Source: a virus (taxonomy: Duplodnaviria; Caudoviricetes). From it: DNA of 61,879 bases. The position numbers were made by a program, and so were the translations under genes. Under the pieces are notes generated by a model. It did no database searches. It was not told the DNA's origin and saw only the letters and a program-made list of their open reading frames with translations. Below are positions 2,613 to 43,876 of this stretch, one piece after another (within the stretch, counting starts at the first letter, position 1; every line of letters begins with the position of its first letter). Location: positions 1-61,879 of IMG/VR virus record IMGVR_UViG_3300032073_003536; one strand, written 5' to 3'.

Positions 2613-3725
2613 ATGTTTGATAATGATATACAACGTATAGGTTTTTGTTGCAAGTATATGGTCCCAGACCAAACGCAAACTCCTAAAGTTCTTAAGGAAC
2701 TACAGCAACAATACACAGAACGTATGACAACTATTACTTGGCTTAACAGACAAGAAAAGTCTGTAGCAGAAGAACGTATGCTTGAACTTGTTACACATAA
2801 CATGCAGGCGGCATACAATCTTGTTGAATATGTCAGTACACTTCCAGCAGAACGTAGAATGGTTAGACTAGGTAGCAATCAGTTGCCTGGCGCAACACAA
2901 GAAGACTGGCAATACATGTGGCAAGATCCTACTAATATTAAAATGCTAGAACAAGGTTTTGCTAAAGTCGGTAAACTTGCTAGAGACAAAGATGTACGCC
3001 TTAGTTTCCATCCAGGTCAATTTACTGTACTTGCTTCTGAAAGCGAAGATGTTATTAGACGTAGTGTAGATGAATTCGAGTATCATGTAAACATGGCTAG
3101 GTGGATGGGTTACGGCAAACAATTTCAAGACTTCAAGTGCAATGTACACATATCAGGTAGAAAAGGTGCCCAGGGTATTATAGATATACTGCCTAAACTA
3201 TCTCCCGAAGCAAGAAATATTATGACTATCGAGAATGACGAAATGTGTCATGGTCTAGATGAAAGTCTTAAATTAGTTGACCATGTTGCTCTGGTGTTAG
3301 ACATACATCATCATTGGATTAGAGATGAAGAGTACATACAACCAGATGATGATAGAGTTAAACGTGTTATTGATTCCTGGCGTGGTGTTCGTCCTGCAAT
3401 GCATTACAGTTATAGTAGAGATGAATGGCTTGACCAGTCTACTACTATTAATGAATCAACCAGACATAACGAATTACAAGATATAAAAGTATTATTAGAG
3501 ACAGGTGCTAAGAAACAGAAACTTAGAGCACATTCGGACTTCTATCCTAACGTAGATGCTAACGAGTGGGCATTGAGTTTTTGGCCCTACTTTGATATAC
3601 AATGCGAAGCCAAGGCTAAGAACTTAGCCAGTGAGCAATTATATTTACAAAGTTGTACACAAACATCGACTCCGGAGTCTATTGTGTTGACTGATTGGGG
3701 AACGCCGAGTTCCTTATCTATCTAG
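2613..3725 (+). CDS. uvsE: UV DNA damage endonuclease (UvsE/UVDE)
   Basis: RIGFCCK, RLSFHPGQF, IENDE, LDIHHHW, AHSDF, EAKAKNLA motifs. Confidence 0.92.
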   Translation: MFDNDIQRIGFCCKYMVPDQTQTPKVLKELQQQYTERMTTITWLNRQEKSVAEERMLELVTHNMQAAYNLVEYVSTLPAERRMVRLGSNQLPGATQEDWQYMWQDPTNIKMLEQGFAKVGKLARDKDVRLSFHPGQFTVLASESEDVIRRSVDEFEYHVNMARWMGYGKQFQDFKCNVHISGRKGAQGIIDILPKLSPEARNIMTIENDEMCHGLDESLKLVDHVALVLDIHHHWIRDEEYIQPDDDRVKRVIDSWRGVRPAMHYSYSRDEWLDQSTTINESTRHNELQDIKVLLETGAKKQKLRAHSDFYPNVDANEWALSFWPYFDIQCEAKAKNLASEQLYLQSCTQTSTPESIVLTDWGTPSSLSI

Positions 3726-8484: not shown

Positions 8485-9253
8485 ACAAGCCTTAAATGAA
8501 CTGAACACAAAGTATGCTAAAACACTAGAGATGTTAGACAGTTCTCTAGATGTTATAGAAGACTTAGAAAATGAAGTTGATGAACTAAAAACTACTAACA
8601 ATATTTTACAAAAAGATTTACTAAAGAAACCTAAAGTAATAACTAAGGAGATAGAAGTTGAAAAAGTCGTTGAGAAGGTTGTCGAAGTTGAGAGAAAGGT
8701 CGAGGTCCCAAAGGAGACAGTGGTCACTCGCGAAGTCAAAGTCCCAGGACCCGAGCGGATTGTTGAAGTCCCAGGACCCGAACGAGTTGTCGAAAAAATA
8801 GTAGAAGTTGAAAAAATTGTACAAGTGCCTGGACCAGAAAGGCGTATAGAAGTTCCTATAGAAAAAATTGTACAAGTGCCTGGACCAGAAAGGATTGTTA
8901 CTAAAGAGGTCCCTGGCCCAGAAGTTATAATCACTAAAGAAGTACCAGGACCTGAACGTGTAGTACAAGTTGAAGTACCTGTAGAAAAGATTGTAGAAAA
9001 GATTGTCAAAATTCCAGGAGAGAAACCTGATGTCATAGAAAAAGCATCCACTAAAGATTTACGTGAAGCCGCAAGGATTATGGCTATGAGTGAATTCAAT
9101 AAAGAAGGATTCAGTGAGGAAGAAATATTCAATATGTTGCAGAAAAGTAGTGAAGAAGATGTAAATAAACAGTTGGGGGGATTTTGGGCAATACCATTAC
9201 CAGCCGACCAAGAAGAAACAGATGAAAATCAAACGAGGTATCAAAAGAAATAA
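8462..9253 (+). CDS. Alveolin/articulin-like repeat protein
   Basis: N-terminal coiled coil, six VPGPE units interspersed with EKIVEV repeats. Confidence 0.75.
   Translation: MTKKITVKQALNELNTKYAKTLEMLDSSLDVIEDLENEVDELKTTNNILQKDLLKKPKVITKEIEVEKVVEKVVEVERKVEVPKETVVTREVKVPGPERIVEVPGPERVVEKIVEVEKIVQVPGPERRIEVPIEKIVQVPGPERIVTKEVPGPEVIITKEVPGPERVVQVEVPVEKIVEKIVKIPGEKPDVIEKASTKDLREAARIMAMSEFNKEGFSEEEIFNMLQKSSEEDVNKQLGGFWAIPLPADQEETDENQTRYQKK
8810..8893 (+). repeat. 33-bp direct repeat inside the coding repeat tract
   Basis: GAAAAAATTGTACAAGTGCCTGGACCAGAAAGG at 8810-8842 and 8861-8893. Confidence 0.9.
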
Positions 9254-10524
9254 TGTCTGACGATAAACAAGATAACAATTTAGAGTGTAGTTTTTGTGGT
9301 AAAAAACGCAACGATGTTAAAAAATTAATAGCAGGGCCTACATCCTATATTTGTAATGAATGTATTAGTATAAGTCATAAGATTATTAATGAAGAATATG
9401 ACGAAACAGACTTATTTGATGATGAGGAAATTCCTGCACCACAAGACATAAAAGACTATCTAGACGAGTATGTAATTAGTCAGGACTATGCTAAAGACAT
9501 ATTAAGTGTTTGTGCATATAATCATTACAAGAAGATTTTACATACAACAGAAAGCGAAAAGATAGAAAAAAGTAATGTACTATTATTAGGTAATACAGGT
9601 ACAGGTAAAACATTATTAGTTAAAACATTAGCAAATAAACTTAATGTACCTTTTGCAATAGCAGACGCAACTACACTAACTGAAGCAGGATATGTGGGAG
9701 AGGATGTAGAAAGTGTTATTGAACGTTTATTAAATGTATGCGACTGGAATGTACCATTAGCACAAAACGGTATAGTATTCATAGATGAGATAGATAAAAA
9801 AGCTCGTAGCAGTGAGTCTAATGCCAATACAAAGGACATAAGTGGCGAAGGTGTACAACAAGCACTCTTAAGACTTATAGAAGGTACAACTGTTAAAGTA
9901 TCAGCAAATGGATCAAAGCGAATGGATGATTACATAGAGTTTGATACATCAAATGTATTATTCATATTAGGCGGCGCATTTGTTGGCATAGATGAAATTG
10001 TTAAAAAGAAACTTAAACAAAGTTCAGTAGGATTCAATAGACCAATAAAAAGTACAACAGATAATAAAGATTGGATAGAACATGTAGAGCATGAAGATAT
10101 TATACAGTACGGGTTAATACCAGAATTTGCTGGACGATTGCCAAACATTGTTGGACTACTAGATTTAGATGAGGCAAATATGTTTAATATATTAAAAAAT
10201 TCTAAAGGTAGTGTAATTCATCAGGTTAAAAGATTATTAAAAATTGATGATATAAGTTTAGAATTTGAGGATCATTATCTTAGAGATGTTGCCAAGATAG
10301 CGGCAAAGAAAAAAGTAGGTGCAAGAGGTCTAAAAAGCATAGTAGAAAACAGTCTACATAATATTATGTTTAGAGCACCAGAGTTACAAAAAAGTGAAGT
10401 ACAACGTGTGGTGTTTAAAAAGTATCCATTTTCTGTTGACTTACATCCTACTATTGTGTATACTAATGGCATTAGTGAAATAGATAAAGACTATAAAATT
10501 AAATTAAGAGGGAACAGTGAGTAA
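9253..10524 (+). CDS. clpX: ATP-dependent Clp protease ATPase ClpX
   Basis: CSFCGK...CNEC zinc domain, [27 protein letters not shown] loop, GARGL. Confidence 0.97.
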
Positions 10525-17947: not shown

Positions 17948-19111
17948 ATGGCTATGAAAACGTATGCTGATAAAATAAATCAGCAATTTAAATCCGGAGC
18001 AAGTAATCTTGTTTCATTACAACAACGTCTAAATGATGCATTAGCATTAAATCCAGTATTTCAAAAAATGCTTGATGGTGCAGTAGACGAATTCAAACGC
18101 AGAAATACGCAATGGAAATCCTTTGAAGATTTAACATTGTGTAATGCAATACCTGTAAAAATGAACGAAGTAGTTATCGATACTACATTACAACGTCCAT
18201 TAAACATTAGGCACATTATAAAAATACTTGACCATTTTAGTCAAAGTATGGTTATGCCTATACAGGTGTACAAAGAGGTACCTCCCGGCGATGAATGGAT
18301 TGCATGGGACGGACAACATACTGCTATAACATTATACATAATTGCAACAAAAGTATTTGGGCAACGTCCTGCTACTGTTACAATTCCAGTTAATGATTAT
18401 CCAGTTGAAAATAAACTAGAGATTAGGCAAAACTTTATTTTACTTAATGGTGATGCTAAAGAGCCTTTAGACTTTATTGATACTTATAAGCAAATGGTAT
18501 ATGGTGTAAGAGTAGATGGTGCAACAAATGAAGATTGGATTGACACAGAACTAAAACAACAATATCTAGAAGACGCAGGTATCTTTGCTACCAACAGTAA
18601 GTTTGGTGATGAAGATGAGCAAGGTGCATTTACTTTGTTAGCAGACACACTAATGAGTAAAAGTCTTAAAACAAGAAAAGATCCACAAATAACAAAAATG
18701 TTTACTAGTTATTGGGGTTACTTAAATCAAGAACGTCCAGTACAAGCCAAGGAGGCTAGGCAGTTATATGAATACTTTGATGCTTGTTTTACACAAGGAA
18801 TTGTAGTAGATGATGAATACTGCAGAAAACTTGCCGACTTTACCAAAGAGTTCTTTGAAGGTGACTTCAGCGAAAGCGGAATGTTTTGGGATAAGGTAAA
18901 ACAAAGTTATTCCAATTGGTACCGTGGTGCTAATAAACATAGCGAAGATAAAAACGAAGATGGAGAAATAATTGTAAGAGGGTTTACTACAGAATGGAGA
19001 TGTGGCGGACCGTTTATTATTTCACAAATTAATAAAAGTACAGACTTAGAAACTCCAAGTTACACTCCTAACAATGGTTATAGTGTAAAGGATTTTGAGT
19101 TATGGCAATAA
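17948..19111 (+). CDS. ParB/Srx-superfamily (DGQH-motif) protein
   Basis: IDTTLQRPL and WDGQHT. Confidence 0.65.
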   Translation: MAMKTYADKINQQFKSGASNLVSLQQRLNDALALNPVFQKMLDGAVDEFKRRNTQWKSFEDLTLCNAIPVKMNEVVIDTTLQRPLNIRHIIKILDHFSQSMVMPIQVYKEVPPGDEWIAWDGQHTAITLYIIATKVFGQRPATVTIPVNDYPVENKLEIRQNFILLNGDAKEPLDFIDTYKQMVYGVRVDGATNEDWIDTELKQQYLEDAGIFATNSKFGDEDEQGAFTLLADTLMSKSLKTRKDPQITKMFTSYWGYLNQERPVQAKEARQLYEYFDACFTQGIVVDDEYCRKLADFTKEFFEGDFSESGMFWDKVKQSYSNWYRGANKHSEDKNEDGEIIVRGFTTEWRCGGPFIISQINKSTDLETPSYTPNNGYSVKDFELWQ

Positions 19112-19542
19112 GAAATCCAAGCAAAGATAAGTTAAAGTCTAACGCAGTATTAAAGGAACAACTAAGTAAACCTTGTATGCTGGAGGATTGTGATAATACT
19201 ATAAGTATATATGACGGGCCAGGCAGTAACGTTTTGTGTAGGGACCATCAATTGGAATGTGTTGAATATGGAGGTATGGGTAAACCAGAGAGACCTTGGA
19301 CATTTTACAGAACTATGGAATGTGCAAAGTGTGGATATAATCCAACTGAAGATCCACAGTTCGATGAAATAGAAGATGAGTACCACAGACTTCGTGTAAT
19401 GCGAGCCATTATGCATGGAGACCATATACACCTAAAAAGTCAAGGTGGTGCTAATACGGCAGATAACATACAGACATTGTGTGTTAAATGCCATATGATA
19501 AAAACATATAAAGAGAAGGACTATCTTGGCACAAAGCAATAA
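19102..19542 (+). CDS. HNH endonuclease with zinc fingers
   Basis: CAKCG...DHIHLKSQGGANTADNIQTLCVKCHMIKT. Confidence 0.88.
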   Translation: MAIRNPSKDKLKSNAVLKEQLSKPCMLEDCDNTISIYDGPGSNVLCRDHQLECVEYGGMGKPERPWTFYRTMECAKCGYNPTEDPQFDEIEDEYHRLRVMRAIMHGDHIHLKSQGGANTADNIQTLCVKCHMIKTYKEKDYLGTKQ

Positions 19543-19915: not shown

Positions 19916-20163
19916 ATAAAGCATCATTAAAAGAATCAGTAATAGACACATCACTAGCATTAGTAATTAACTTTCCATTGAATATGTTATTGTTGTATAT
20001 TGCTAATAGAACATTTATACCTGACATGGAATCAGAACAAGAACAAATATTTTGGACATCTGTTTTCCTAACTGTAGTGTTTACACTTGTAGCAGTTACA
20101 AGAAAATATTTTGTTAGAGGATACTTTAAAGCCAAAGAGATTAGAAAAAATGCAATACATTGA
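19906..20163 (+). CDS. Two-helix membrane protein
   Basis: SLKESVIDT...INFPLN...RKYFVR. Confidence 0.7.
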   Translation: MAIDKASLKESVIDTSLALVINFPLNMLLLYIANRTFIPDMESEQEQIFWTSVFLTVVFTLVAVTRKYFVRGYFKAKEIRKNAIH

Positions 20164-21103
20164 ACACGGATTCGCAGGACGTGATATTCCTTCAATTGAT
20201 ATAGTAAAAGGTTTATTTGACACAATTGAACGAGAAGGAAAGTATAAACATATTATAGATACAAGTGTGTTGTGGAACTTTAATGATGTGTATAATCCTG
20301 ATCATTTCCCTAGAGTACAAAATCCTTTAGAAGGTCGTAAGAATTTAATGTTGCTAGTTCAATTAATGGACCCTGCTGGATATTTAGATAACAATAACGA
20401 TTTTAATAATAAAGGCTGGCATGGAATAGATATTTTAAGTGATAGAACATGCATGTATAACTTTTGGGCAGAGTATTGGTGTGATTACTGGACAAACAAT
20501 AATGAAAAATTTGAGACGGATGTTGAACTAAAATTTGATACACACTTTAAAAAATACCTAATGTATAATAGAAAGCCAGTGCACCATAGAGTAATAGCAG
20601 TTGACCAACTAGAAAAAGGAAACCTTTTAAACGACGGCTATGTGACTCTAGCAGACCAATTAACATTACCCATGCCTGGAGTTAAAGATGTATTTTTAGT
20701 TACAGATGGTGATATAGAAAAGAAATCAGATCCATCATTAGGTGATATGCATATATGGAATCATGCATTTGTGAATGTTATTAGTGAAACATCTATGGAT
20801 GGCACATTTATGAGTGAAAAAACATTTAAGCCTATTGTTGGTAAAAGGCCTTTTGTTAGTTTTAATAAAGAACGTACTCAACGTCTAATAGATGTAGGCT
20901 TTAAAACATTTGGTAATTTTTGGAATGAAAATTTAGATTGGTATGAGCAAGTAGACTTTATATGTAGACAAGATGTTGATACACTCAAAGGTTGGTGGGA
21001 ATCATATGAAATGCAAGATATATTAGAACACAACAAAATGCATTTCTGGAGCACCTATCAAGCCATAAACAAACAATTTCTATACGATTTTATAAAAAAA
21101 TAG
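20150..21103 (+). CDS. Glycosyltransferase-like phage protein
   Basis: YNRKPVHHR, VISET...SEKTFKPI, GFKTFGNFWNE; related to 27937..29448. Confidence 0.55.
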   Translation: MQYIEHGFAGRDIPSIDIVKGLFDTIEREGKYKHIIDTSVLWNFNDVYNPDHFPRVQNPLEGRKNLMLLVQLMDPAGYLDNNNDFNNKGWHGIDILSDRTCMYNFWAEYWCDYWTNNNEKFETDVELKFDTHFKKYLMYNRKPVHHRVIAVDQLEKGNLLNDGYVTLADQLTLPMPGVKDVFLVTDGDIEKKSDPSLGDMHIWNHAFVNVISETSMDGTFMSEKTFKPIVGKRPFVSFNKERTQRLIDVGFKTFGNFWNENLDWYEQVDFICRQDVDTLKGWWESYEMQDILEHNKMHFWSTYQAINKQFLYDFIKK

Positions 21104-21123
21104 CATTTTTTTGCAAAAAAAGG

Positions 21124-21172
21124 TTGATTTTTTGCCAAAAAGTACTATATAATATATTAAGTTGTATAAATA
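21124..21172 (+). promoter_or_regulatory. Tandem sigma70 promoter and T4-type late promoter
   Basis: TTGATT-N18-TATAAT (21124-21153), then TATAAATA (21165-21172). Confidence 0.7.
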
Positions 21173-21174
21173 AC

Positions 21175-21575
21175 TTTGCAATTTTACTAATGCAAGGGCA
21201 ATAGAATCGTAAGAAACTAAAGTCTACTGCAAAAGAAAAATTGCTATAATGATGCACAAGGTAAGTGAATCGTAAGAAACACAAACCGAATGGTATTATT
21301 ATATAAACTGGAGATTAAGTCTTCAAAAGTGCTCGGGCTTTGCAATATAAGTCTTCAAAAGAGCACGGACTTAAACCTCTTAGTTTTGATAGTTGAAGGA
21401 CACTCCTCGGAGACACAAATTCAACATTTGGGGTAACCAACAAACGGCTTTAGATGGCAACACCTGAAGACACGAAGAAGATTACCAAGTAGACTAGAGC
21501 GACAGGACACACACTAACGAATGCCGCTCTACTCCGCGAACTTTTTATTCGCCAAATGGGTTTAAGAAGTTTAAG
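21175..21575 (+). ncRNA. Large modular structured RNA of unknown family
   Basis: ORF-free; duplicated hairpins with compensatory changes, GNRA tetraloops, complementary loops GTGCTC/GAGCAC. Confidence 0.8.
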
Positions 21576-21583
21576 ATAGAAAA

Positions 21584-21610
21584 ATAACTTGCTAAACAAT
21601 AGGAGATTAT
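21584..21610 (+). promoter_or_regulatory. ROSE-like RNA thermometer hairpin
   Basis: CUUGCU pairs with the AGGAG Shine-Dalgarno (bulged G) directly before hsp20. Confidence 0.65.
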
Positions 21611-21611
21611 T

Positions 21612-22058
21612 ATGGTAAATAAGCAATTCAGAATCACATCAGATTCACTATCCCCACTATATAAAATGAGCGTCGGCTTTGACAGAATGGCAGAGCAGTT
21701 TTTTAACGACCCATCATTTGTAAATAACGGTACAGGCTATCCGCCTTACAACATTTCTAAAACATCAGATGACATCTATGAGATTACTCTTGCAGTAGCA
21801 GGATTTAAGAAAGGTGATATCGATATTAGTTTAGAAGACGGTACGTTAAAAATCGAAGGCACTTCAGGTGTACTTGATAGCGACAAAGAAGTTGAATACC
21901 TACATAAAGGTATTGCTGAAAGAAATTTCATTAGGACTTTCAAATTAGCAGAGTTTGTCGAAGTCAAAGATGCCAAGTTAGAAGACGGTATTTTAAAGGT
22001 AACATTGTTTAGAAATGTTCCTGACGCCCTTAAACCACAAAAGATTAAAATTTCTTAA
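21612..22058 (+). CDS. Small heat shock protein Hsp20 (IbpA-like)
   Basis: GYPPYNI, LAVAGF, YLHKGIAERNF, LEDGIL. Confidence 0.95.
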   Translation: MVNKQFRITSDSLSPLYKMSVGFDRMAEQFFNDPSFVNNGTGYPPYNISKTSDDIYEITLAVAGFKKGDIDISLEDGTLKIEGTSGVLDSDKEVEYLHKGIAERNFIRTFKLAEFVEVKDAKLEDGILKVTLFRNVPDALKPQKIKIS

Positions 22059-22075
22059 TAGTACTGGTAAATAAT

Positions 22076-22104
22076 GGGGAGGAAGAATACTTTCTCCTCA
22101 TTTT
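22076..22104 (+). terminator. Possible terminator hairpin
   Basis: GGGGAGGAAG...CTTTCTCCTC then ATTTT. Confidence 0.5.
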
Positions 22105-22115
22105 AGCGAGTACAT

Positions 22116-22319
22116 ATGGCAAAGAAAGACAAAAGAAAACAGATAGTATACCTCATACCAGAAGGTGAGACTAGAGATAGTCACACATATCATTATACAG
22201 CAGTTAAAACAAAAAGGTTGACTTCTGAAAATAAGAAGTTAAAATTAAACAAGTATAATCCGGTAAAACGAATACACGAAACTTTCGTAGAAGCAAAATT
22301 ACCACCACACACCAAATAG
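22116..22319 (+). CDS. rpmG: Ribosomal protein bL33 (zinc-free type)
   Basis: MAKK.KR..V.L...YTAVK...KLKLNKYNPVKRIHETFVEAK aligns with the L33 consensus. Confidence 0.85.
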   Translation: MAKKDKRKQIVYLIPEGETRDSHTYHYTAVKTKRLTSENKKLKLNKYNPVKRIHETFVEAKLPPHTK

Positions 22320-22326
22320 GTTTAAC

Positions 22327-22626
22327 ATGGCAAAAGAGGCAGTAAAGACTAGAACTAGCACAGAACTAAGATATCCAGGCAGATATAATGTTGTCATTTA
22401 CAATGATGACTACACGCCTGTTGAATTTGTTATCAAGATGTTAGTAGAGGTATTTAATAAAGATGTTAATACTGCTAAGTCATTAACGCAGGAAATTCAT
22501 TCTCAAGGTGCAAGTATTGCCGGAACATACAATGCCGAGATTGCTGAACAAAAGTGTTCAGAAGGCATTTCAATTGCTAGAGCAAACGGACACCCACTTC
22601 AACTTAAAGTTGAAAAAGTAGAATGA
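22327..22626 (+). CDS. clpS: Clp protease adaptor ClpS
   Basis: [30 protein letters not shown]. Confidence 0.95.
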
Positions 22627-24068
22627 GCATAGATAATCTTAATAAAGAAAAATACGAACAAGGTTTCAATACAGATGTAGAAGCAGATAGTCTGCCGCCT
22701 GGTCTAGACGAAGATACAATAAGACAAATTAGTGCTATTAAAGAAGAACCACAATGGTTACTAGATTTTAGATTAAAAGCATACAAAAAATGGATTGCAA
22801 TGGACGAACCAGATTGGAGTGAGTTAGATTACACACCAATTGATTACCAAGCATTAAGTTACTACTCAGCACCAAAGACTAGAACTAAAGATGATATACC
22901 ACCCGAAATATTAGAAACTTTTGAAAAATTAGGTGTACCTTTACATGAACGTGATGCATTATTGGGAATAGAAAAAGACCCAAGTGTTATCCCAACTGTA
23001 GCAGTTGATGTAGTCTTTGATAGTGTTAGTATAGCAACAACATTCCAAACAGAATTAAAAAAACACGGTATTATATTTTGTAGTATTAGTGAAGCAGTAC
23101 AACATCACCCAGACTTAGTAAGAGAAAACTTAGGTAAAGTTATACCTTATTCAGATAATTATTTTGCTACACTTAATAGTGCTGTATTTACAGACGGCAC
23201 ATTCTGTTATATTCCCAAAGGTGTTAAGTGTCCTATGGAACTTAATACATACTTTAGAATCAATGCTCGTAATACAGGACAGTTTGAACGTACACTTATA
23301 ATAGCAGATGAAGGAAGTTATGTAAGTTATTTAGAAGGATGTACAGCACCAGCATATGATGAGAATACATTACATGCGGCATGTGTTGAACTTATATTAC
23401 ATGATGATGCAGAAATAAAATATTCAACAGTACAAAATTGGTATCCAGGAGATGAGAACGGAGTAGGCGGAGTTTATAACTTTGTAACAAAACGTGCAAG
23501 GTGTGAAGGCAAAAATAGTAAAGTTAGTTGGACACAGGTTGAAACAGGAAGTGCTGTTACATGGAAGTACCCAAGTTGCATACTTAAAGGTGAAGGAAGT
23601 ATCGGAGAATTTTTTAGTGTTGCAGTAACTAAAGGTAAGCAACAAGCAGATACAGGAACTAAGATGATTCACTTAGGTAAGAACACAAAGTCCACAGTTA
23701 TATCCAAAGGTATTAGTTTTGGCGATAGTACAAATACATATAGAGGTGCAGTTAAAGTTAATCCCGGAGCTCATAATGCCAGAAACTATACTAAGTGTGA
23801 TAGTTTAATGTTACAAGATAGCAGAGCATTAACTATACCATATGTAACAAGCGAAAATAATAGTGCTATGATTGAACACGAAGCAAGTGCAGGTAAAATT
23901 AGTGATGAACAATTATACTATTTGCAAAGTAGAGGCATGGATGAAGATGATGCTATGAATTTAATTGTAAATGGATTCTGTAAAGATGTATTTCAGAAGT
24001 TACCATTAGAGTTTGCCGCTGAAGCCAATAAATTATTAAGTGTAACACTAGAAGGAGCAGTAGGATAA
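22623..24068 (+). CDS. sufB: Fe-S cluster assembly scaffold SufB
   Basis: [48 protein letters not shown]. Confidence 0.97.
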
Positions 24069-24070
24069 TG

Positions 24071-24099
24071 TTGACATTACATAAAAAAGGTAGTAAAAT
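24071..24099 (+). promoter_or_regulatory. Sigma70-type promoter, predicted leaderless sufC transcript
   Basis: TTGACA-N17-TAAAAT, 6 nt before the ATG. Confidence 0.75.
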
Positions 24100-24105
24100 A
24101 AGCGA

Positions 24106-24801
24106 ATGCTAAAACTAAAGAATTGGGCAATAGAAAATGTTATACACAGTATCGATGTAGATTTTGATGCTGGGCGTACTTATGTGGTTATGGGTGCAAA
24201 TGGTGTAGGTAAAAGTACATTGTTACATAGCATTATGGGTAAACCTGGATTAGAAACATCCGGTTCTGCAGAATTTTTAGATGTAGAGATATCAGATATG
24301 GAAGTAAATGAACGTGCTGATATGGGGATGTTTATAGGTTTCCAAGCACCTACTAGTATACCAGGACTTAGTAACTTTCAATTTATTAAACAAGTTAAAG
24401 AACTATCTGTAACAGATATCAAAGATAATCTTACACAATTCAAAGATTTAAGTTCAAAAATGAAACTGCCCGACGATTGGGATAAACGTAATCTAAATAC
24501 AGATGCAAGTGGCGGTGAGAAGAAAAAGAACGAATTAATACAAATGTTAATGATGGATACCAAACTTGCAATGTTAGATGAGCCTGACAGTGGACTAGAT
24601 GTTGACGGCATAAAAACACTTACAGAACAATTAAACAATTGGAGAACAAAAGACAATACTCTTATAGTTGTAACACATTACGATAAACTAATTGAAGGAC
24701 TAAATCCTGATGCAATATTTGTATTGAAGAAAGACCACATAGTAGGTGGTGATAAATCTCTAGCAGATAAAATATTTGCAGAAGGGTTTGATAGTGTATA
24801 A
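24106..24801 (+). CDS. sufC: Fe-S assembly ATPase SufC
   Basis: GANGVGKST, FQAP, SGGEKKKNE, LDEPDSGLDVD, VTHY. Confidence 0.93.
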   Translation: MLKLKNWAIENVIHSIDVDFDAGRTYVVMGANGVGKSTLLHSIMGKPGLETSGSAEFLDVEISDMEVNERADMGMFIGFQAPTSIPGLSNFQFIKQVKELSVTDIKDNLTQFKDLSSKMKLPDDWDKRNLNTDASGGEKKKNELIQMLMMDTKLAMLDEPDSGLDVDGIKTLTEQLNNWRTKDNTLIVVTHYDKLIEGLNPDAIFVLKKDHIVGGDKSLADKIFAEGFDSV

Positions 24802-26062
24802 ACAACTTTACGGTACTAGGTTATTAGAAAATCAGTTTGGCAAAGATGTATATTTTACCTTGCATGACGTAGCAGACTATGTCACATCAGACGAGTATAT
24901 AGATGGCATAGATTCTAACTACTGGTCTCACAAATTACCACAATACAACAAAACATATAAACATAATCTTATAAATTTAAAAGATGATGGTCTACCTACT
25001 AAGCGAAGTGAACAGTTTAATTTTGCAAACTTACATAAATTATATTCATTAGAAATACTTAATAGTCAGCCTACACAAGGTCTCGATTTAGAAAAGTTTA
25101 GTTACCTTGCAAACCAAGATAGAACTATTGTATTAAACGATAGTAATGTTGTTACTACAAATGACTTAGGCAAAAAGGCTCCGTTTAATGTACAGATATT
25201 GGATAGTATAACTGTTAATAAGAATAGAATGTCGGAATATATACAGTTATTGCATCAAGAAGAAAATTTAACTAGACTCACATACGCATTAAGTCCATTT
25301 CCTAATATTATTATTTTTCCAAGCGGCAGTAAAGAGTCTTTTAAAAAGAATCCATTAAGCATACAATATTTAAACTCAGGAGAAGATCCAAAATTAGATT
25401 GTAATACAACTATATTTGATATTCAATATAATACTAAAGTAAAATTAAATGAAACTGTTAAAACAACAGCAGGTCAAATGAACTATAGTATGTATATTCT
25501 AAGAGAAAATTCAGAACTAGTAATAGACAGAAAGTCAAAAGACTCCGGCGGGTGGAATATATTTGATAGTGTGTTCATTTGTCATCCTGGCAGTAAACTT
25601 ACAGTTAATTTTACTAACACAGGAAGTCAATACACACAAGAAAATTTTTATATAAACAGTAGCAGTAAGACTACTGTAAATATTAAAGGCAGAAATAAAA
25701 TATTCAGAGGTAACAATTATCACCAATATGTTTATCAAAAAAGTGACGACCCTGATAATTATAGTAGTATAGATATTAAAAATGTAGGTAAAGAATTCGC
25801 ATCAACAAGTTTCATAGGAAGATATGATGTTGGTGCATTAAGTATAGATTTTGATGGTGATATGAACAATCAAAATTTAATGTTAGACAAGAATGTAAAA
25901 ATGCATACTCGCCCTATTTTAGATATACATACAAAAGAAATAAAATGTCAGCATGGCTGTACTGTAAGTAATGTAAATGAAGAACACATATATTACTTGC
26001 AGAGTAAAGGTATGGATAAGAGTCAAGCAACTGACCTATTAGTAGAGAGTTTTTTATGTTAA
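24794..26062 (+). CDS. sufD: SufD-like protein (divergent)
   Basis: GLPTKRSEQF, NQNLML, RPILDI...KCQHGCTV...YYLQSKG; start uncertain. Confidence 0.85.
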   Translation: MYKQLYGTRLLENQFGKDVYFTLHDVADYVTSDEYIDGIDSNYWSHKLPQYNKTYKHNLINLKDDGLPTKRSEQFNFANLHKLYSLEILNSQPTQGLDLEKFSYLANQDRTIVLNDSNVVTTNDLGKKAPFNVQILDSITVNKNRMSEYIQLLHQEENLTRLTYALSPFPNIIIFPSGSKESFKKNPLSIQYLNSGEDPKLDCNTTIFDIQYNTKVKLNETVKTTAGQMNYSMYILRENSELVIDRKSKDSGGWNIFDSVFICHPGSKLTVNFTNTGSQYTQENFYINSSSKTTVNIKGRNKIFRGNNYHQYVYQKSDDPDNYSSIDIKNVGKEFASTSFIGRYDVGALSIDFDGDMNNQNLMLDKNVKMHTRPILDIHTKEIKCQHGCTVSNVNEEHIYYLQSKGMDKSQATDLLVESFLC

Positions 26063-27285
26063 GAGCGTACCCAAAAGCAAAGAGTATTAAAGAGATTAGG
26101 AATTGCTTTCCTAGTTTAGCATATACAGAACTAGCCTATTTAGATAATGCGGCTAGTACACAAACTGTTGACAGTTCGATTAAAGCAGTCAGCGACTATC
26201 ATTATAATTATAGAGCAAATGTTCATAGAGGTGATTTTGAAACTAGTAGTATTGCTAGTGAGATATATGACCAAGCAAGAGTAGAAATAGCAAAATTAAT
26301 TAATTGTGAAATAGAAGAAGTTGCATTTACAAAAGGCACAACCCATAGTTTAAACATTGTTACTAATTGGTTACAAGATGATAGAAAAGTAATAGTTACA
26401 GAGTTAGAACATCACAGTTTATTAATGCCTTGGTTAAAATCTGGTAAAACACAAAACGGTGGAGATTTAATTGTTGTACCAGCAAGTGACCATGGCGATG
26501 TTAGTTTAGAAGATTTCACAAAAGCATGTAAAGAAAATCCAGGATCAATATGTGCATTCCTTACACAAAGCAATTTAACAGGAATGTGTCTACCTTGGGA
26601 ACATATGGTTAGAATAGCAAAAGAATATGATTGTGAAGTTATTATAGATGCATGTCAAAGCATAGGTCATAAACCTATGGATGTTCAAGCAAACAATATA
26701 GACTGGATGGCATTTAGCGGACACAAGATGTTTGCAAGTACAGGAGTTGGAGTTTTATTCCATAGGGGTGGCTTTGGTGACATAGATAATGCCTATGATT
26801 TAGGAGGCGGTACAGCAGAGCATGTAGACTTCGACGGATACCATTTACATAGTGACTTTAGAAAAATAGAAGCAGGCACACCAGACATTGCAGGAATACA
26901 TAGTATAGGAGCCGCGGCAAAATGGATGCAAGAAATAGGCTATAAAGACATACAAGAATGTGAAGCAGAATTTTTTAACATGCTTGACGACAAAGGATTA
27001 TTCCACATACCAGAACTTAAACTTATTGGTCCTGTTGCACCAAGAAGTGTGTATAGTTTTGTAACAGAATTTAATCCAAGTGACTTAGCAGGGTTTTTAA
27101 GTTTTGATAAAGTATGTGTAAGAACGGGCCATATGTGTGCCCAGCCTGCCAGTAGACGTTACAATAAAAACAATACAGGTGTATTTAGAATAAGTACTGC
27201 ACCGTACAACAACGAACTAGATTGCGTAAAATTAGTAGAGGGTATATGGAAAGCGATGGAAAAGTTGGGCTTCAAGAACAGTTAG
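26056..27285 (+). CDS. sufS: Cysteine desulfurase SufS
   Basis: YLDNAAST, ANVHRG, EHHS, SGHKM, EAGTP, RTGHMCAQP. Confidence 0.93.
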   Translation: MLRAYPKAKSIKEIRNCFPSLAYTELAYLDNAASTQTVDSSIKAVSDYHYNYRANVHRGDFETSSIASEIYDQARVEIAKLINCEIEEVAFTKGTTHSLNIVTNWLQDDRKVIVTELEHHSLLMPWLKSGKTQNGGDLIVVPASDHGDVSLEDFTKACKENPGSICAFLTQSNLTGMCLPWEHMVRIAKEYDCEVIIDACQSIGHKPMDVQANNIDWMAFSGHKMFASTGVGVLFHRGGFGDIDNAYDLGGGTAEHVDFDGYHLHSDFRKIEAGTPDIAGIHSIGAAAKWMQEIGYKDIQECEAEFFNMLDDKGLFHIPELKLIGPVAPRSVYSFVTEFNPSDLAGFLSFDKVCVRTGHMCAQPASRRYNKNNTGVFRISTAPYNNELDCVKLVEGIWKAMEKLGFKNS

Positions 27286-32673: not shown

Positions 32674-33888
32674 ATGAAACTCGCTATCACTGGAGTGGGT
32701 ATAGTCTCGCCTTTAGGCAATACTCTCTCTGAAAACATTAAGAATCTTAAGGCATTAGAAGTTCCAATACAAGACTATAGACAACAAGGTCATTTTAGTG
32801 ATTGGATACTAGAAGTAAAAAAAGCATTTCATTGCAATTATGATGATGTAGATATTGAACATCTTATAAAGAAAAAGGATAAACGTTGGATTGATCCAAC
32901 TGTAGTATCTAGTATGATTGCAGTAGAAGAAGCAGTTAAACAAAGCGGTTTAGATTTCCCACATGACACTCCTGTAATAGTAGGAACTATTAGAGGCGGT
33001 GCTCCTAACCTAGCAAGGTACGGGCAAATACTAAATGACAAAAGACGTAAAGTACACCCACAAATACTATTAAGTAGTTCACATGAGTACGTTAGCAACC
33101 ATATAAGCAGTCATTACAAGTGGCATGGGCCAAGTATGGGTACTAGCGGAACATGTATTAGCGGTGTACAAGCATTGGATATAGCAAAGAAATATATGAT
33201 TACTGAAGGTTATACCTGTGCTATTGTTGGCGGAACAGATTTTATGACAAGTTCTATGAGTACTATATACTTCCAACTGTTAGGTGCTATTAGCCAAACA
33301 GGAAAAAGTGTACCTTGGGACGAAAGTCGAGATGGTTTTGTTATGGGAGAAGGTAGTGTTTACCTAGTAGTAGAACCATTAGAGTTGGCCCGTAAGAGAG
33401 GGGCAAACATTAGGTGGGTAGTTGACGGTCTCGGGATAGCGAACGATGGGGCTCACCCTACTCAACCTGACCTTGAAGGCACTGGTGCCAGAATTGCTAT
33501 AGATAAGGCTTTATCACAAGCAGGCACTAGTGCTGGAGATTATAATGTATTAAATGCACATGCCACAAGCACACCATTTGGTGATCCTGTAGAGTATAAC
33601 GTGTTGAAAGATTACTTTCCAGAGCAAAGTTATTTGTACGGTAACAAAGGACAAATAGGCCATTTAATGGGTGCAAGTGGATTAGCAGAAGTTGTATTAG
33701 GTGCAGAAGCAATGGTAGACGGATTTGTTCCAGCAAACGCCGGCTTAGAAAAACCTTTTACAGATGACAACTATTTTAATTTATTAACACAACCAACAGA
33801 GGAGTCGTACACCAGAATGTTTAAAACATCTTTTGGATTTGGTGGAAGAAGTGCGGCAGTGAGTATAGTAGATGAAAGAGAAATTTAA
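32674..33888 (+). CDS. Beta-ketoacyl-ACP synthase (FabF-like)
   Basis: ITGVGIVSPLG, catalytic C (GTCISG), NAHATST, GHLMGASG, FGFGG. Confidence 0.92.
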   Translation: MKLAITGVGIVSPLGNTLSENIKNLKALEVPIQDYRQQGHFSDWILEVKKAFHCNYDDVDIEHLIKKKDKRWIDPTVVSSMIAVEEAVKQSGLDFPHDTPVIVGTIRGGAPNLARYGQILNDKRRKVHPQILLSSSHEYVSNHISSHYKWHGPSMGTSGTCISGVQALDIAKKYMITEGYTCAIVGGTDFMTSSMSTIYFQLLGAISQTGKSVPWDESRDGFVMGEGSVYLVVEPLELARKRGANIRWVVDGLGIANDGAHPTQPDLEGTGARIAIDKALSQAGTSAGDYNVLNAHATSTPFGDPVEYNVLKDYFPEQSYLYGNKGQIGHLMGASGLAEVVLGAEAMVDGFVPANAGLEKPFTDDNYFNLLTQPTEESYTRMFKTSFGFGGRSAAVSIVDEREI

Positions 33889-36472: not shown

Positions 36473-37591
36473 ATGCGTATTGAAGAAGACATTAAACTAG
36501 ATTACAATGACGTTTTACTTAGACCCAAACGTAGTACAATGGGTAGCCGTAAAGAAGTAGATTTACAAAGACAATTTACTTTTATGAACAGTAAAAAAAC
36601 ATTTAACGGTATTCCAATTATTGCCAGTAACATGCATGGAGTTGGAACATTTAGAATGGCAGAAGAACTTATTAAAGTTCCAATGTTTACCACGTTATGC
36701 AAAGATTATCAAACAGCAGACATTTGGGATTGGTTAAGTAATCATGTACATAAGCCAGACTTATGTAACCTAACAGCGGTGTGTACGGGCATCACAGACG
36801 TTGATAACGAGCGTATCGAAGCAACACTTAAACTATGCAGAAGCATTCAATATGTTTGCATTGATGTAGCAAATGGTTACAGTGAAAGATTTTTAGATTA
36901 TGTAGCACGTTTTAGAGACAAGCACCCGGACATTACAATTATAGCAGGTAATGTTGTAACAGGTGATATCACAGAGGAGTTACTCCTCAAAGGAGCAGAC
37001 ATTGTTAAAGTTGGCATTGGGCCTGGTAGTGTTTGTACTACTAGGATTAAGACTGGCATTGGATATCCGCAACTATCAGCCGTTATGGAATGTGCCGATG
37101 CCGCTCATGGTCTTGGCGGACACATCATTGCTGATGGCGGTTGTGCAAGTGCTGGAGATGTAGTTAAAGCATTTGCCGGTGGAGCCGACTTTGTACAACT
37201 AGGAGGTTTACTAGCAGGTACAGATGAAGGTGGCGGTGATGTAATAACAAAATCCTATATAACAAACGAACAACAAGAAAGCACTTCAGCAGGTGTTGGC
37301 AAAAGAGTACAAAAAAGTTATGTAGAATTTTATGGTAATAGTACCACAATAGCACAGGAGGATTTCGGTGGCGTACAAGAGCATAGAACAAGTGAAGGTA
37401 GAATTGTCCAAGTTCCTTATAGAGGTGCAGTTAAGTCCGCAGTTGGGGATATACTTGGAGGCTTGCGTAGTGGTTGCACTTATGTTGGTGCTCACTCTTT
37501 AAAAGAACTTAGTAAGCGAACAACATTTGTAAAAGTAAACGGTGGAAGAACTTATAACAATACGTTCGAACAATTAACAGTAGGTGAATGA
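36473..37591 (+). CDS. guaC: GMP reductase
   Basis: DVLLRPKRST, IDVANGYSE, GIGPGSVCTTR, ADGGC, SEGR. Confidence 0.95.
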   Translation: MRIEEDIKLDYNDVLLRPKRSTMGSRKEVDLQRQFTFMNSKKTFNGIPIIASNMHGVGTFRMAEELIKVPMFTTLCKDYQTADIWDWLSNHVHKPDLCNLTAVCTGITDVDNERIEATLKLCRSIQYVCIDVANGYSERFLDYVARFRDKHPDITIIAGNVVTGDITEELLLKGADIVKVGIGPGSVCTTRIKTGIGYPQLSAVMECADAAHGLGGHIIADGGCASAGDVVKAFAGGADFVQLGGLLAGTDEGGGDVITKSYITNEQQESTSAGVGKRVQKSYVEFYGNSTTIAQEDFGGVQEHRTSEGRIVQVPYRGAVKSAVGDILGGLRSGCTYVGAHSLKELSKRTTFVKVNGGRTYNNTFEQLTVGE

Positions 37592-41995: not shown

Positions 41996-43876
41996 ATGAA
42001 AGAAAAAATTGTTTTAGTTCAGCCCAACTTCAAAATCGGCGGCGGTAGTTTTACAGGTTACTGGCTACCTTATTCTGTTGGATGTCTTTGGAGTTATGCA
42101 AGTAAGCATACTTGGGTAACAGACAATTTTGAAGTTCAAGACTTAATATACAAACGTGAGCAACCTAGCAAATTAATACAACGTATTAAGAATTGCAAGG
42201 TTGCATTCTTTTCCAATTACATGTGGAATTGGGAATACAATAAGCATATCGCTGAACAATTAAAGATTGAAAATCCGGACATCAAAATCGTATTTGGTGG
42301 TCCTCAAGTCACGACTAGACCACAAGAAGAAGAATTCTTCAAACATCACCCATACGTCGACAGCATTAGTCTCACAGAAGGCGAAGAGTCTTTTGTAAGC
42401 ATTCTTGACGCAATATTACACAAAAAGCCGTTAAAAGACGTCTATGAAGGCGAGCGACTAGTGGATTTAGACATACCCAGCCCATATCTTACAGGAGTAT
42501 TTGATAAGATAATGGCTGAAGCACCTAAAGACCAACTATGGAACGGAACCATAGAAACAAATAGAGGGTGTCCTTTTGCATGTACATTTTGTGATTGGGG
42601 TAGTTTAACCTATGCTAAGATTAAAAAGTTTCCTATACCAAAAGTATTACAGGAACTTACATGGATGTCAGAACGACAAATAGACTATGTTACTATTGCT
42701 GATGCAAACTTTGGCGTATTCACAGATAGAGACTTAGAGTTTACAGAAAGGTTAGTTGACTTACAAAACAAAAATGGATTTCCTAAAGTAGTAGATGCTA
42801 CTTGGTATAAGAATAGTAGTGATGAGATTTTAGAAATTGTTAAGAAGTTTATTAGCAGTGGTTTCAATAGAGGACTAACTCTTAGTGTGCAAAGTATGGA
42901 CATGGATGTATTAGAAGAAATTAAAAGACGTAATATGGAAATGTCTGACCTCAAAATGATTTTTGAAAAATGCAATAGGGAAGGCATACCTAGTTATACA
43001 GAACTTATATTAGGCTTACCTAAGGAAACATATGAAAGTTGGAAAGCAGGATTGTGTGAAGTAATTAAAGCAGGACAACACAATGCTATAGAAAGTTGGT
43101 TAGCACAAATGTTAGAAAACGCACATATGAACTTACCTTCAGAAATTGAAAAGCATGGTATTACAACAGTTGTTGTAGAAAACTATGTTAGTGGATTCGA
43201 AGAGGAAGATAATATCTTTGAAAAAGTTAATTTAGTTACAGGTACAAAATATATGCCAACGCCAAAGTTTATTGACAGTTGGTTATATGCATGGGTTATT
43301 AATAACTTTCATAACTATGGTTGGAGCCAAGCAATAGCAAGATTAATATATGAGAAGAATGGTATTGAGTATGAGCAAACATACGATATGCTTTTCCAAG
43401 CATGTTTAGAAGACGAAGGTGTAGTTGGTCAACTAATACGAACAGCAAAAGAACAAATTACATTTTATTTAGAAACAGGTAGAAGCGATGGTCCTGGCAT
43501 ACTACAAGGGTTTAGTGGTCATACTTTAATGTGGGAGGCACAAACAGACTTCCACAAAAACGATAAAGCAATTAAAGAATTTGTAAAGAAACATCTTACA
43601 CAAGAATACTGTAACCTAGATGACCATATGTATCAACATCTATTACAATTCCAACATAATTATACTACAGCAGAAGATACAGTATATCCATACTGGGCAA
43701 ACACTGGATATAACTTTTACGAATACATAAACGGTATAGATAAAGAACTTACAAGTACAAAAGACAATTATCAATTCGACATTGCCGAACATGTCAAAGG
43801 CGAAGAATACTTTAATAGATTATACTTCAGACGCAGACAAGGTTGGGGCAAATCCATAATCAGTCAAAATACTTAA
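41996..43876 (+). CDS. B12-binding-domain radical SAM protein
   Basis: VFGGP, ETNRGCPFACTFCDW (CxxxCxxC), DANFG, ILGLPKET. Confidence 0.92.
   Translation: MKEKIVLVQPNFKIGGGSFTGYWLPYSVGCLWSYASKHTWVTDNFEVQDLIYKREQPSKLIQRIKNCKVAFFSNYMWNWEYNKHIAEQLKIENPDIKIVFGGPQVTTRPQEEEFFKHHPYVDSISLTEGEESFVSILDAILHKKPLKDVYEGERLVDLDIPSPYLTGVFDKIMAEAPKDQLWNGTIETNRGCPFACTFCDWGSLTYAKIKKFPIPKVLQELTWMSERQIDYVTIADANFGVFTDRDLEFTERLVDLQNKNGFPKVVDATWYKNSSDEILEIVKKFISSGFNRGLTLSVQSMDMDVLEEIKRRNMEMSDLKMIFEKCNREGIPSYTELILGLPKETYESWKAGLCEVIKAGQHNAIESWLAQMLENAHMNLPSEIEKHGITTVVVENYVSGFEEEDNIFEKVNLVTGTKYMPTPKFIDSWLYAWVINNFHNYGWSQAIARLIYEKNGIEYEQTYDMLFQACLEDEGVVGQLIRTAKEQITFYLETGRSDGPGILQGFSGHTLMWEAQTDFHKNDKAIKEFVKKHLTQEYCNLDDHMYQHLLQFQHNYTTAEDTVYPYWANTGYNFYEYINGIDKELTSTKDNYQFDIAEHVKGEEYFNRLYFRRRQGWGKSIISQNT

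Follow-up and report, generated by a model that had tools for sequence, protein, structure and literature searches.

A conserved, modular structured RNA with a ROSE-like 3′ unit directly upstream of a phage hsp20 gene

We analyzed the noncoding region upstream of hsp20, the gene for a small heat-shock protein (sHsp), in the IMG/VR virus record IMGVR_UViG_3300032073_003536 (Duplodnaviria; Caudoviricetes), the 61,879 nucleotides (nt) of which are here called the window. The original prediction, made by a model from the letters of the DNA, had described a gap of about 430 nt free of open reading frames (ORFs) behind a sigma70 promoter and a second, perfect sequence signal, and had proposed that it encodes a large modular structured RNA. 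The gap was borne out: no conserved ORF lies across positions 21104–21611, where only mechanical ORFs of 30–64 amino acids (aa) occur, and it follows both a sigma70-like site and TATAAATA, the T4-type late-promoter word (Table 1). The region holds a real, expressed and conserved structured RNA. Its 5′ side carries optional modules (two rods, a twin module and a variable hairpin), which are followed by a conserved domain built from helix A, hairpin B and hairpin C (the A/B/C domain) and by a ROSE-like unit at 21536–21614, where one hairpin is followed by a second, putative one that includes the Shine–Dalgarno (SD) sequence of hsp20. The constant part of the leader is its 3′ half, 21428–21614.

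Table 1. Features of the hsp20 leader and its borders in the window (MFE, minimum free energy; pair counts give the pairs changed on both sides)
Feature	Position	Strand	Description and basis
ORF, 330 aa, family unassigned	20111–21103		borders the gap on the upstream side
Sigma70-like (early-type) promoter, TTGATT-18-TATAAT	21124–21153	+	consensus scan, 10/12 matches; putative promoter function
TATAAATA, T4-type late-promoter word	21165–21172	+	sequence; expected transcript start near 21178
Rod 1, optional hairpin	21178–21244	+	GUAA tetraloop, A-rich internal loops; MFE fold, covariation; 5′ end of transcript
Rod 2, second copy of the rod module within a closing helix	21246–21304	+	direct repeat D3, MFE fold, covariation
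Twin module, optional pseudo-symmetric rod	21305–21386	+	three helices; two 7-nt UUCAAAA bulges, each opposite a single G
Variable hairpin GUUGAA/UUCAAC	21392–21426	+	MFE fold; length and sequence differ among relatives
Conserved domain of ~100 nt (A/B/C)	21432–21532	+	helix A enclosing hairpin B, then CAAGU, then hairpin C; alignment A3
Helix A, long-range	21432–21436 / 21482–21486	+	4/5 pairs; four pair types at one position
Hairpin B, GCAA loop	21445–21474	+	5/9 pairs
Hairpin C (UAGAGCG/CGCUCUA, 21495–21531)	21494–21532	+	5/6 pairs; conserved CA-rich loop of ~23 nt
GCGA/UCGC putative pseudoknot helix	21536–21539 with hairpin I tip		invariant; no pair changed on both sides
Hairpin I	21536–21569	+	stem 21541–21547 / 21563–21569; tip UCGCC-AAAU-GGG (21549–21560); 6/7 stem pairs
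Hairpin II	21586–21605	+	putative anti-SD UUGCU (21589–21593) facing SD AGGAG (21601–21605); no pair changed on both sides
hsp20, small heat-shock protein, 148 aa	21612–22058	+	Pfam HSP20, E 4.5e-17; presumed controlled gene
Terminator-like hairpin 3′ of hsp20	22076–22097	+	consensus scan

An alignment of 11 IMG/VR contigs whose hsp20 is 66–82% identical to that of the window (alignment A1) showed an alignable upstream region with long invariant blocks and visible compensatory changes. To collect further relatives, we scanned three collections with a pattern taken from within the A/B/C domain. IMG/VR viral contigs gave 17 stretches, 16 of them true, and metagenome contigs, which are marine as judged from record names and titles, gave at least 119. 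Among the genomes of 185,579 species there were two matches, both in GC-rich metagenome-assembled genomes and both unlike the motif, and no bacterial copy was found by that exact pattern. A DNA search of isolate phages found no similar DNA, only a 43-nt A/T-rich chance match. After removal of duplicates and false matches, at least 97 distinct cores remained. Among the matches listed, to which all counts of cores and tallied loci given below also refer, 93 of 97 cores were followed by an hsp20 ORF (145–156 aa), three were cut by the contig end and one carried a deletion, so that the A/B/C domain lies directly 5′ of the hsp20 start in 93 of 94 evaluable cases. The search pattern was drawn from the RNA, outside hsp20, which makes this test of their association an unbiased one. 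In the lineage with the deletion (contig L169, equal to L194), viewed over about 420 nt ahead of the core and 900 nt beyond it, two rods are kept together with the A/B/C domain, but the RNA stops after CCGCGAAC inside hairpin I, hsp20 is gone, and the next gene is convergent and PhoH-like by eye.

The leader region is transcribed. The stretch is present in 20 public sequencing runs from nine studies, 13 of them recorded as RNA, and contigs from four of the RNA libraries, each of a different study, were mapped to positions 20200–23200. These contigs span from 21186–21204 to 22093, 22142 or 22361; in three libraries they end at 22093–22142, in the fourth one contig reaches 22361, and the ends fall near the terminator-like hairpin downstream of hsp20. 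RNA depth over 20200–21108 was 0 (0.6–0.7 in one run), with almost none past 22361; the uncovered flanks argue against DNA carry-over and serve as a control, not as proof of silence. One RNA contig of 839 nt (21255–22093, no differences) unites the leader and hsp20. In one library, the leader contigs had a word depth of 171–578 versus 5.6 for the hsp20 contig (30–100×), a hint only, as the depths sum related phages.

At the late-promoter site, ATAAATAA is unchanged in all 11 aligned sequences, and 96 of 108 distinct loci have a promoter-like word 5′ of the core; the start of the late transcript, placed as in T4 late promoters, would lie within a few bases of rod 1. The sigma70-like site is alignable in 8 of the 11 relatives, the other three having coding sequence there, and such sites are not in excess over the whole region (nine found versus 8.5 expected from shuffles). 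The word just before hsp20, AAAAATAA in the window and ATAAATTA in relatives, was considered as a possible second late promoter and differs from TATAAATA. No terminator-like site was found by the consensus scan between the structured RNA and hsp20.

The strongest evidence for a selected structure comes from the constant part. We aligned 91 sequences of it (89 distinct rows; alignment A3) and drew the structure by hand. Across the paired columns, 90.8% of cells could pair, compared with 79.3% after shuffling of partners and 36–45% after sliding one strand by 1–3 columns. Both sides had changed in 20 of 36 pairs, and the 365 both-side-changed cells stand against 101 ± 8 in shuffled data (0 of 500 shuffles as high) and 19–82 in slid data. 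Independently run, RNAalifold predicted 23 pairs, 14 of them compensatory, and recovered helix A, parts of hairpin B, hairpin C, the stem 21541/21563 and the CC/GG of the hairpin I tip. Helix A and hairpin B are separated by a conserved internal loop, CCAACAAA / AAGAAG, and CAAGU at 21486–21490 is invariant. The A/B/C domain had no Rfam match at E ≤ 10. Three candidate helices were rejected: an MFE hairpin UUGG/CCAA at 21428–21441, where relatives carry CCGG or AAAG and covariation backs helix A instead; a helix of the bases before GCGA with GGG, which by reading places A opposite G in many rows; and a helix of the 5′ flank with the CUAAA that follows the anti-SD, which by eye does not hold consistently from row to row.

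The last ~80 nt resemble ROSE-type thermometers, and from this likeness a response to temperature is predicted. Published descriptions define ROSE elements by a U(U/C)GCU in the 3′ hairpin of the leader of a small-hsp gene, where it blocks the SD (PMC3669281, PMC11342760), and a short two-hairpin type is described for Pseudomonas ibpA (PMC3669281). In our alignment, the octamer AACUUGCU (21586–21593) is invariant in 91 of 91 rows and UUGCU stands 7–12 nt upstream of AGGAG in every row. The register would be U·G, U–A, G opposite G, C–G and U–A: the four flanking positions keep a standard pair in 84–89 of 89 rows, and the middle one is G opposite G in 89 of 89 rows by reading, which the tally lists only as "other." UUGCU may thus mask the SD. 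Hairpin I has the tip (U)CGCC-N4-5-GGG in all rows. Among distinct family rows, GCG (21536–21538) is present in 75 of 75 and CGCC in the tip in 71 of 75, compared with CGCC in 21 of 53 short leaders with a GCC..GGG tip; this family-level pattern hints at a pseudoknot of 3–4 bp between GCG(A) and the tip. The invariant AAGU at 21487–21490 is also complementary to ACUU at 21587–21590, which overlaps the anti-SD; the ROSE_3 consensus likewise has ACU before the motif, so that the conservation of ACUU needs no additional helix with AAGU.

Comparison with catalogued RNAs agreed with the original statement that this is not recognizable as transfer-messenger RNA, RNase P, SRP or 6S RNA or a known riboswitch: Rfam 15 gave no match at the gathering score in the whole window, and ARAGORN found no transfer RNA (tRNA) or transfer-messenger RNA. 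Lowering the cut-off to E ≤ 10 for 20900–21900 and 21400–21640 returned nothing relevant besides a weak match to ROSE_3 (RF02523), the only cis-regulatory Rfam match in 21400–21640, which is placed at 21571–21617 in the same register; a microRNA-like match to the palindrome 21096–21152, rliF and CRISPR-DR62 were dismissed as chance matches. The position in the 5′ untranslated region (UTR) before hsp20, the U(U/C)GCU opposite the SD and the GCC..GGG tip of hairpin I were all found as expected of a ROSE element. Because the window and its relatives score under the Rfam gathering threshold, we call the unit ROSE-like rather than a member of RF02523.

On the plus strand, 21165–21611 folded to −109.1 kcal/mol (z −5.01); 100 shuffles that keep dinucleotide content gave −81.9 ± 5.4, none of them reaching the native value, and every hairpin named in advance appears in this MFE fold. 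The minus strand of the leader region reached z −3.72. Compensatory changes back the rods, the twin unit, the GCAA hairpin (21448–21469) and the UAGAG hairpin among those named, so that covariation, found in alignments of 89, 41 and 65 rows and by RNAalifold, joins the fold in supporting a large modular structured RNA. The anatomy read from one sequence stood for the hairpins listed but missed the last two, which form the recognizable ROSE-like part. G·U pairs are common in the rod and twin alignments (33–37 rows at single pairs) and would be A·C on the opposite strand, which fits the plus strand as the structured RNA.

The two internal repeats noticed originally (direct repeats D2 and D3) are real, and both rods share the tip GAAUCGUAAGAAAC (D3). 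Across 65 distinct rod rows (alignment A5), 78.3% of cells were paired, sliding lowered this to 32–41%, and both partners had changed at 8 of 12 pairs; the helix closing rod 2 varies in sequence among relatives and keeps its complementarity by eye. The rod tips occur in two forms (e.g., 21204–21217 and 21267–21280), AAUC-GUAA-GAAA and GAUC-GUAA-GUGA. In the latter, the flanking G–A / G–A could make tandem sheared pairs with U·U, and in 4 of 65 rows the closing C–G is exchanged for G–C. The twin module contains the repeated unit UCUUCAAAAG at a spacing of 32 nt (D2), and in its alignment (A4, 41 distinct rows) 91.9% of cells were paired versus 19–41% when slid, with 10 of 18 pairs changed on both sides. 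The supposed twin hairpins form a single pseudo-symmetric rod: GUGCUC pairs with GAGCAC, and in 17–18 of 41 rows these two halves have changed places.

Nor are the rods and the twin unit the essence of the RNA, as they had first appeared to be: both are optional, and each is missing in many relatives. The rod motif was missing from 30 of 103 tallied loci and the UCUUCAAAAG word had zero copies in 37, and the two counts vary independently. Combinations without rods and with two UCUUCAAAAG words (22 of 103 loci), with two of each (21) and with three rods and no word (19) were the most common, followed by two rods and no word (12), three rods and two words (7) and neither (6), the remaining combinations making up 16 loci. 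The rods and the twin module are therefore facultative parts. Promoter word and core lay 85–443 nt apart (median 228; 96 loci). An initial scan with a rod pattern of 14 fixed bases had been too loose, 111 of its 120 loci being chance matches; eight loci had genuine rods, all in this hsp20 leader.

A 20-nt direct repeat (D4, 80% identical) flanks the long leader at 21157–21176 and 21571–21590. Its 5′ copy holds the late-promoter word and AACUU(U)GC, and its 3′ copy the AAUAACUUGC of the anti-SD. The first transcript bases thereby resemble the anti-SD segment, as if the extension had arisen by duplication and insertion into a short leader.

Such short leaders were found in other phages. The motif A(A/C/U)CU(U/C)GCUU stands a few bases before the hsp20 SD in six isolates (L265–L270): the Pelagibacter phages Mosig, HTVC008M and HTVC115P (the last a SAR11 podophage), the Methylophilales phage Melnitz and the cyanophages S-PM2 and S-CAM4. 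The leaders of Mosig, HTVC008M and Melnitz show a late-promoter word and after it a single hairpin with the tip UGCC-N-GGG(U), and the ROSE_3 consensus tip, GCC..GGGU, is as in these leaders. The Melnitz leader matched ROSE_3 over its full length with 34.1 bits (E 5.8e-4), under the threshold of 43. A covariance model built from the last 82 nt of the window family (R1) matched the leaders of Mosig (34.6 bits, E 3.8e-4), HTVC008M (28.6 bits, E 0.0066), Melnitz (20.9 bits, E 0.26), S-PM2 (17.2 bits, E 1.6) and HTVC115P (16.7 bits, E 2); all five matches are at the hsp20 start, and three chance matches elsewhere had E 5–8. In S-PM2 and S-CAM4 (L268, L269), hsp20 is annotated directly downstream of regA, a T4-type translational repressor.

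We then sampled 80 further IMG/VR hsp20 loci (L272–L351) whose protein is 37–51% identical to that of the window. R1 matched at E ≤ 1 and ended at the start codon in 45 of 80, with two matches elsewhere; U(U/C)GCU stood 3–12 nt before the SD in 72 of 80, and a GCC..GGG hairpin tip was present within 90 nt in 53 of 77. Within 500 nt of the start, 43 of 77 loci had a late-promoter-like word, the nearest lying a median of 65 nt before the ATG in those. The A/B/C domain or a rod was found in none of the 77 evaluable loci. To judge from these results, phage hsp20 is ordinarily preceded by a short ROSE-like unit of two hairpins, ahead of which the window lineage appears to have inserted the domain and modules. 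One of the 77 (L333) carries a twin-like unit, AAAAAGAGCUCGG and UCUUCAAAAGAGCUCGG, 260 nt before hsp20 in a leader lacking the A/B/C domain, which indicates that modules can attach to a plain ROSE-like leader. A literature search, which did not extend to supplements, found no description of ROSE-type control of phage hsp20. The Melnitz paper mentions hsp20, with no thermometer in its passages on Hsp20, heat shock, thermometers or structured RNA.

The protein suggested a further link. Escherichia coli IbpA is reported to bind the 5′ UTR of its own mRNA, a leader of the thermometer type, and thereby to repress its translation; the binding requires R93 and is helped by R97/K98 and the aromatic Y34 (PMC10474464). 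We aligned the window Hsp20 with seven other phage Hsp20s and Salmonella IbpA and IbpB, and checked the IbpA numbering from the third residue of the Salmonella IbpA row, from which Y34, R83, R97 and K98 land on Y, R, R and K. Arginine occupies the R93 column in 9 of the 10 proteins, the window's included, IbpB alone being without it; the Y34 column is aromatic by reading, and the window Hsp20 has arginine at the R97 column. As phage Hsp20 keeps the arginine of the R93 column, the enlarged leader would most simply be a platform for self-repression by Hsp20.

We conclude, at a probability of roughly 60%, that the region is the ~435-nt 5′ leader of the phage hsp20 mRNA and acts in cis on its translation, as a ROSE-like thermometer enlarged by a new domain. 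Transcription from the late promoter, and probably from the early promoter too, would run to the hsp20 start codon, and in hairpin II UUGCU would mask the SD by a weak helix with a G·G mismatch that opens on warming or on the departure of a bound factor. The A/B/C domain, added directly upstream, probably touches hairpin I through GCG/CGC pairing, and with AAGU competing for the ACUU beside the anti-SD it could tune or gate the switch. The GNRA-capped rods and the pseudo-symmetric rod may be peripheral modules that stabilize the fold, protect the 5′ end or offer additional binding surface. Phage Hsp20 would bind its own leader, helped by the A/B/C domain and rods adding binding surface or stabilizing the repressed fold, and repression would be relieved once Hsp20 is drawn onto aggregating proteins. 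This fits the complex stress-responsive leader that was among the functions first proposed, given the position before hsp20 and the ROSE signature opposite the SD.

Several observations weigh against this conclusion. The SD hairpin shows no covariation, every position being invariant, and is not predicted by nearest-neighbor folding, which sometimes pairs CUUGCU with AAGCAA in hsp20 codons 4–6 instead. The GCG/CGC and AAGU/ACUU contacts likewise rest on invariant bases. Between hairpins I and II, the spacer exceeds that of ROSE_3 in both length and variability, the window scores only 10.7 bits against that family (threshold 43, E 9.9), and ROSE_3 was undetected at E ≤ 10 in 20 of 20 loci of relatives searched. 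The RNA contigs give neither true ends nor proof of a single transcript. The window Hsp20 has threonine at the K98 column, its binding to the leader is suggested by analogy only, and a thermometer seems an odd need in a thermally stable ocean. In a bolder version, the A/B/C domain would be a new class of RNA sensor set on the thermometer, either a dedicated high-affinity platform by which oligomeric phage Hsp20 senses aggregation in the infected cell or an aptamer. Two signals would then be integrated, temperature and a proteostasis or metabolite signal together timing chaperone synthesis, in an RNA particle of several hundred nucleotides with the GNRA rods and the UUCAAAA-bulged twin module as exchangeable parts. 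We consider this bolder version possible but doubtful.

Other explanations account for parts of the data. The A/B/C domain might be the sensor itself, either a riboswitch-like aptamer that binds an ion or small molecule or a binding site of some protein besides Hsp20, and would set whether AAGU captures ACUU and frees the SD, so overriding the thermometer. The conserved unpaired bases of the CCAACAAA / AAGAAG loop and of the 23-nt hairpin C loop speak for this, as do the possible pseudoknot joining the domain to the neighboring hairpin I, the AAC before UUGCU in 91 of 91 rows, the restriction of the domain to this one expression platform among the matches listed and the absence of a match to a known Rfam family. 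We nevertheless judge it unlikely, as a chaperone gene suggests no ligand and the AAGU/ACUU helix is just 4 bp, invariant and partly shared with the ROSE_3 consensus. It is quite unlikely that the structured part is mainly an mRNA stabilizer, in which a 5′ hairpin and a compact fold shield the late hsp20 message from host RNases and sense nothing: this would leave unexplained both the near-invariant loop and junction sequences over ~90 variants and the exclusive link between the A/B/C domain and hsp20. It would nevertheless suit the start of rod 1 close to the expected 5′ end, the optional and interchangeable modules, as generic protective structure would be, and the high depth of the leader contigs, depths that sum related phages and cannot rank the parts of a gene.

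The same depth, with the same caveat that it sums related phages, could be read as a stable noncoding RNA acting in trans as a scaffold or decoy, the leader or a processed piece of it, with the neighborhood of hsp20 incidental or serving co-expression. Large ornate RNAs come to mind in view of its size, its modular build, its GNRA loops and the recurring bulge motifs, and one lineage retains a truncated RNA without hsp20. That sole exception, however, is a deletion that also took the 3′ end of the RNA, and in the other 93 of 94 evaluable cases the RNA runs into the ribosome-binding site of hsp20; no terminator-like site separates the RNA from hsp20, one RNA contig unites both, and Rfam gave no match to GOLLD, ROOL, OLE, 6S or others. 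A role in trans is therefore very unlikely, and nothing we found points to the scaffold or decoy that had been suggested along with the leader. To the idea that the repeats act as DNA, as protein-binding sites or an origin with the RNA folds a by-product, we give next to no credence: the minus strand also folds better than its shuffles and the twin unit is a direct repeat, but the compensatory changes preserve pairing rather than sequence, G·U pairs are many, and the region is found in RNA libraries while its flanks are silent. The cis-acting, ROSE-like leader of hsp20 is thus the reading we prefer.

The gene upstream of the leader differs among relatives (alignment A1). In two of them (L009 and L010), a reading frame ends immediately 5′ of the leader in which inspection of the aligned DNA shows an HNH-like motif; in the window, an HNH endonuclease ORF lies at 19102–19542, 1.6 kb upstream. 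An A/T-rich inverted repeat at 21100–21148, with 21-nt arms 86% complementary and a loop holding the −35 hexamer of the sigma70-like promoter, gave the microRNA-like chance matches, is alignable in several relatives and could be the terminator of the upstream gene. Downstream of hsp20 follow a weak bL33-like ORF (under the Pfam cut-off), ClpS, SufB, SufC and SufD-like and SufS-like genes. The RNA was originally placed upstream of an hsp20-bL33-clpS-suf cluster; the position is right, but the RNA contigs end after hsp20 and the link to bL33-clpS-suf is unsupported. The window, a fragment, is rich in host-like Pfam genes, which occur at 2613–3725, 9253–10524, 22116–27285, 32674–33888, 36473–37591 and 41996–43876. 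They include UvdE, ClpX (with a zinc finger), the weak bL33-like ORF, ClpS, SufB, SufC, a SufBD-core protein (SufD-like), a class-V aminotransferase (SufS-like), a beta-ketoacyl synthase, an IMPDH/GMP-reductase-type protein and a B12-binding radical SAM protein, and jointly form a proteostasis and Fe–S cluster block surrounding hsp20. A PHROGs search of neighboring ORFs gained little. The window Hsp20 is at most 48% identical to isolate Hsp20s, the nearest being those of Pelagibacter and Methylophilales myophages, and together with the late-promoter word the relatives make a marine T4-like phage the probable source.

The presence of the RNA in marine RNA libraries of several studies makes it a candidate new RNA family with real expression. 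If our interpretation is true, hsp20, a core auxiliary gene of marine T4-like phages, would be under ROSE-type control almost everywhere sampled (72 of 80 loci), and one abundant lineage would have enlarged a simple switch by a conserved domain backed by covariation and by a set of optional modules. The leaders would form a natural series from 60 to 600 nt for studying how RNA switches gain complexity, and the RNA would connect phage infection with the self-regulation of sHsps in a way open to testing.

GOLLD and ROOL are large ornate noncoding RNAs, often carried by phages and prophages. The leader shares with them a length of several hundred nucleotides, modularity, many GNRA-capped helices and a phage-borne origin; unlike them, it has no Rfam match, and where they lie free near tRNAs it is joined to a ribosome-binding site and to one particular gene. 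Large ribozymes and riboswitches carry peripheral domains, and by analogy the leader combines a constant core with optional, lineage-specific GNRA-capped helices; no catalytic or ligand core was identified here. Like the E. coli ibpA leader, it is of the thermometer type and precedes the gene of an sHsp with arginine at the R93 and R97 columns and an aromatic residue at the Y34 column, but the K98 column holds threonine and the phage leader is far larger. A close likeness is to ROSE_3: the leader sits in the 5′ UTR of an Hsp20/IbpA-family gene, U(U/C)GCU lies close before the SD and can pair with AGGAG with G opposite G, the preceding hairpin has the tip GCC..GGG(U), and the related leader of Melnitz scores 34 bits. 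In contrast to the 60–90 nt of ROSE elements, the phage leader measures ~435 nt, and it has parts that appear in none of the ROSE descriptions consulted: the conserved domain of 100 nt ahead of the unit, the pseudoknot that may join hairpin I, and the optional rods. It is also encoded by a phage. The RNA is therefore not wholly undescribed, as had been proposed, since its last ~80 nt resemble a known class of thermometer; the A/B/C domain and the modules match no Rfam family. What is known is the ROSE-type thermometer kind at the 3′ end, and what is new is the A/B/C domain with its add-on modules.

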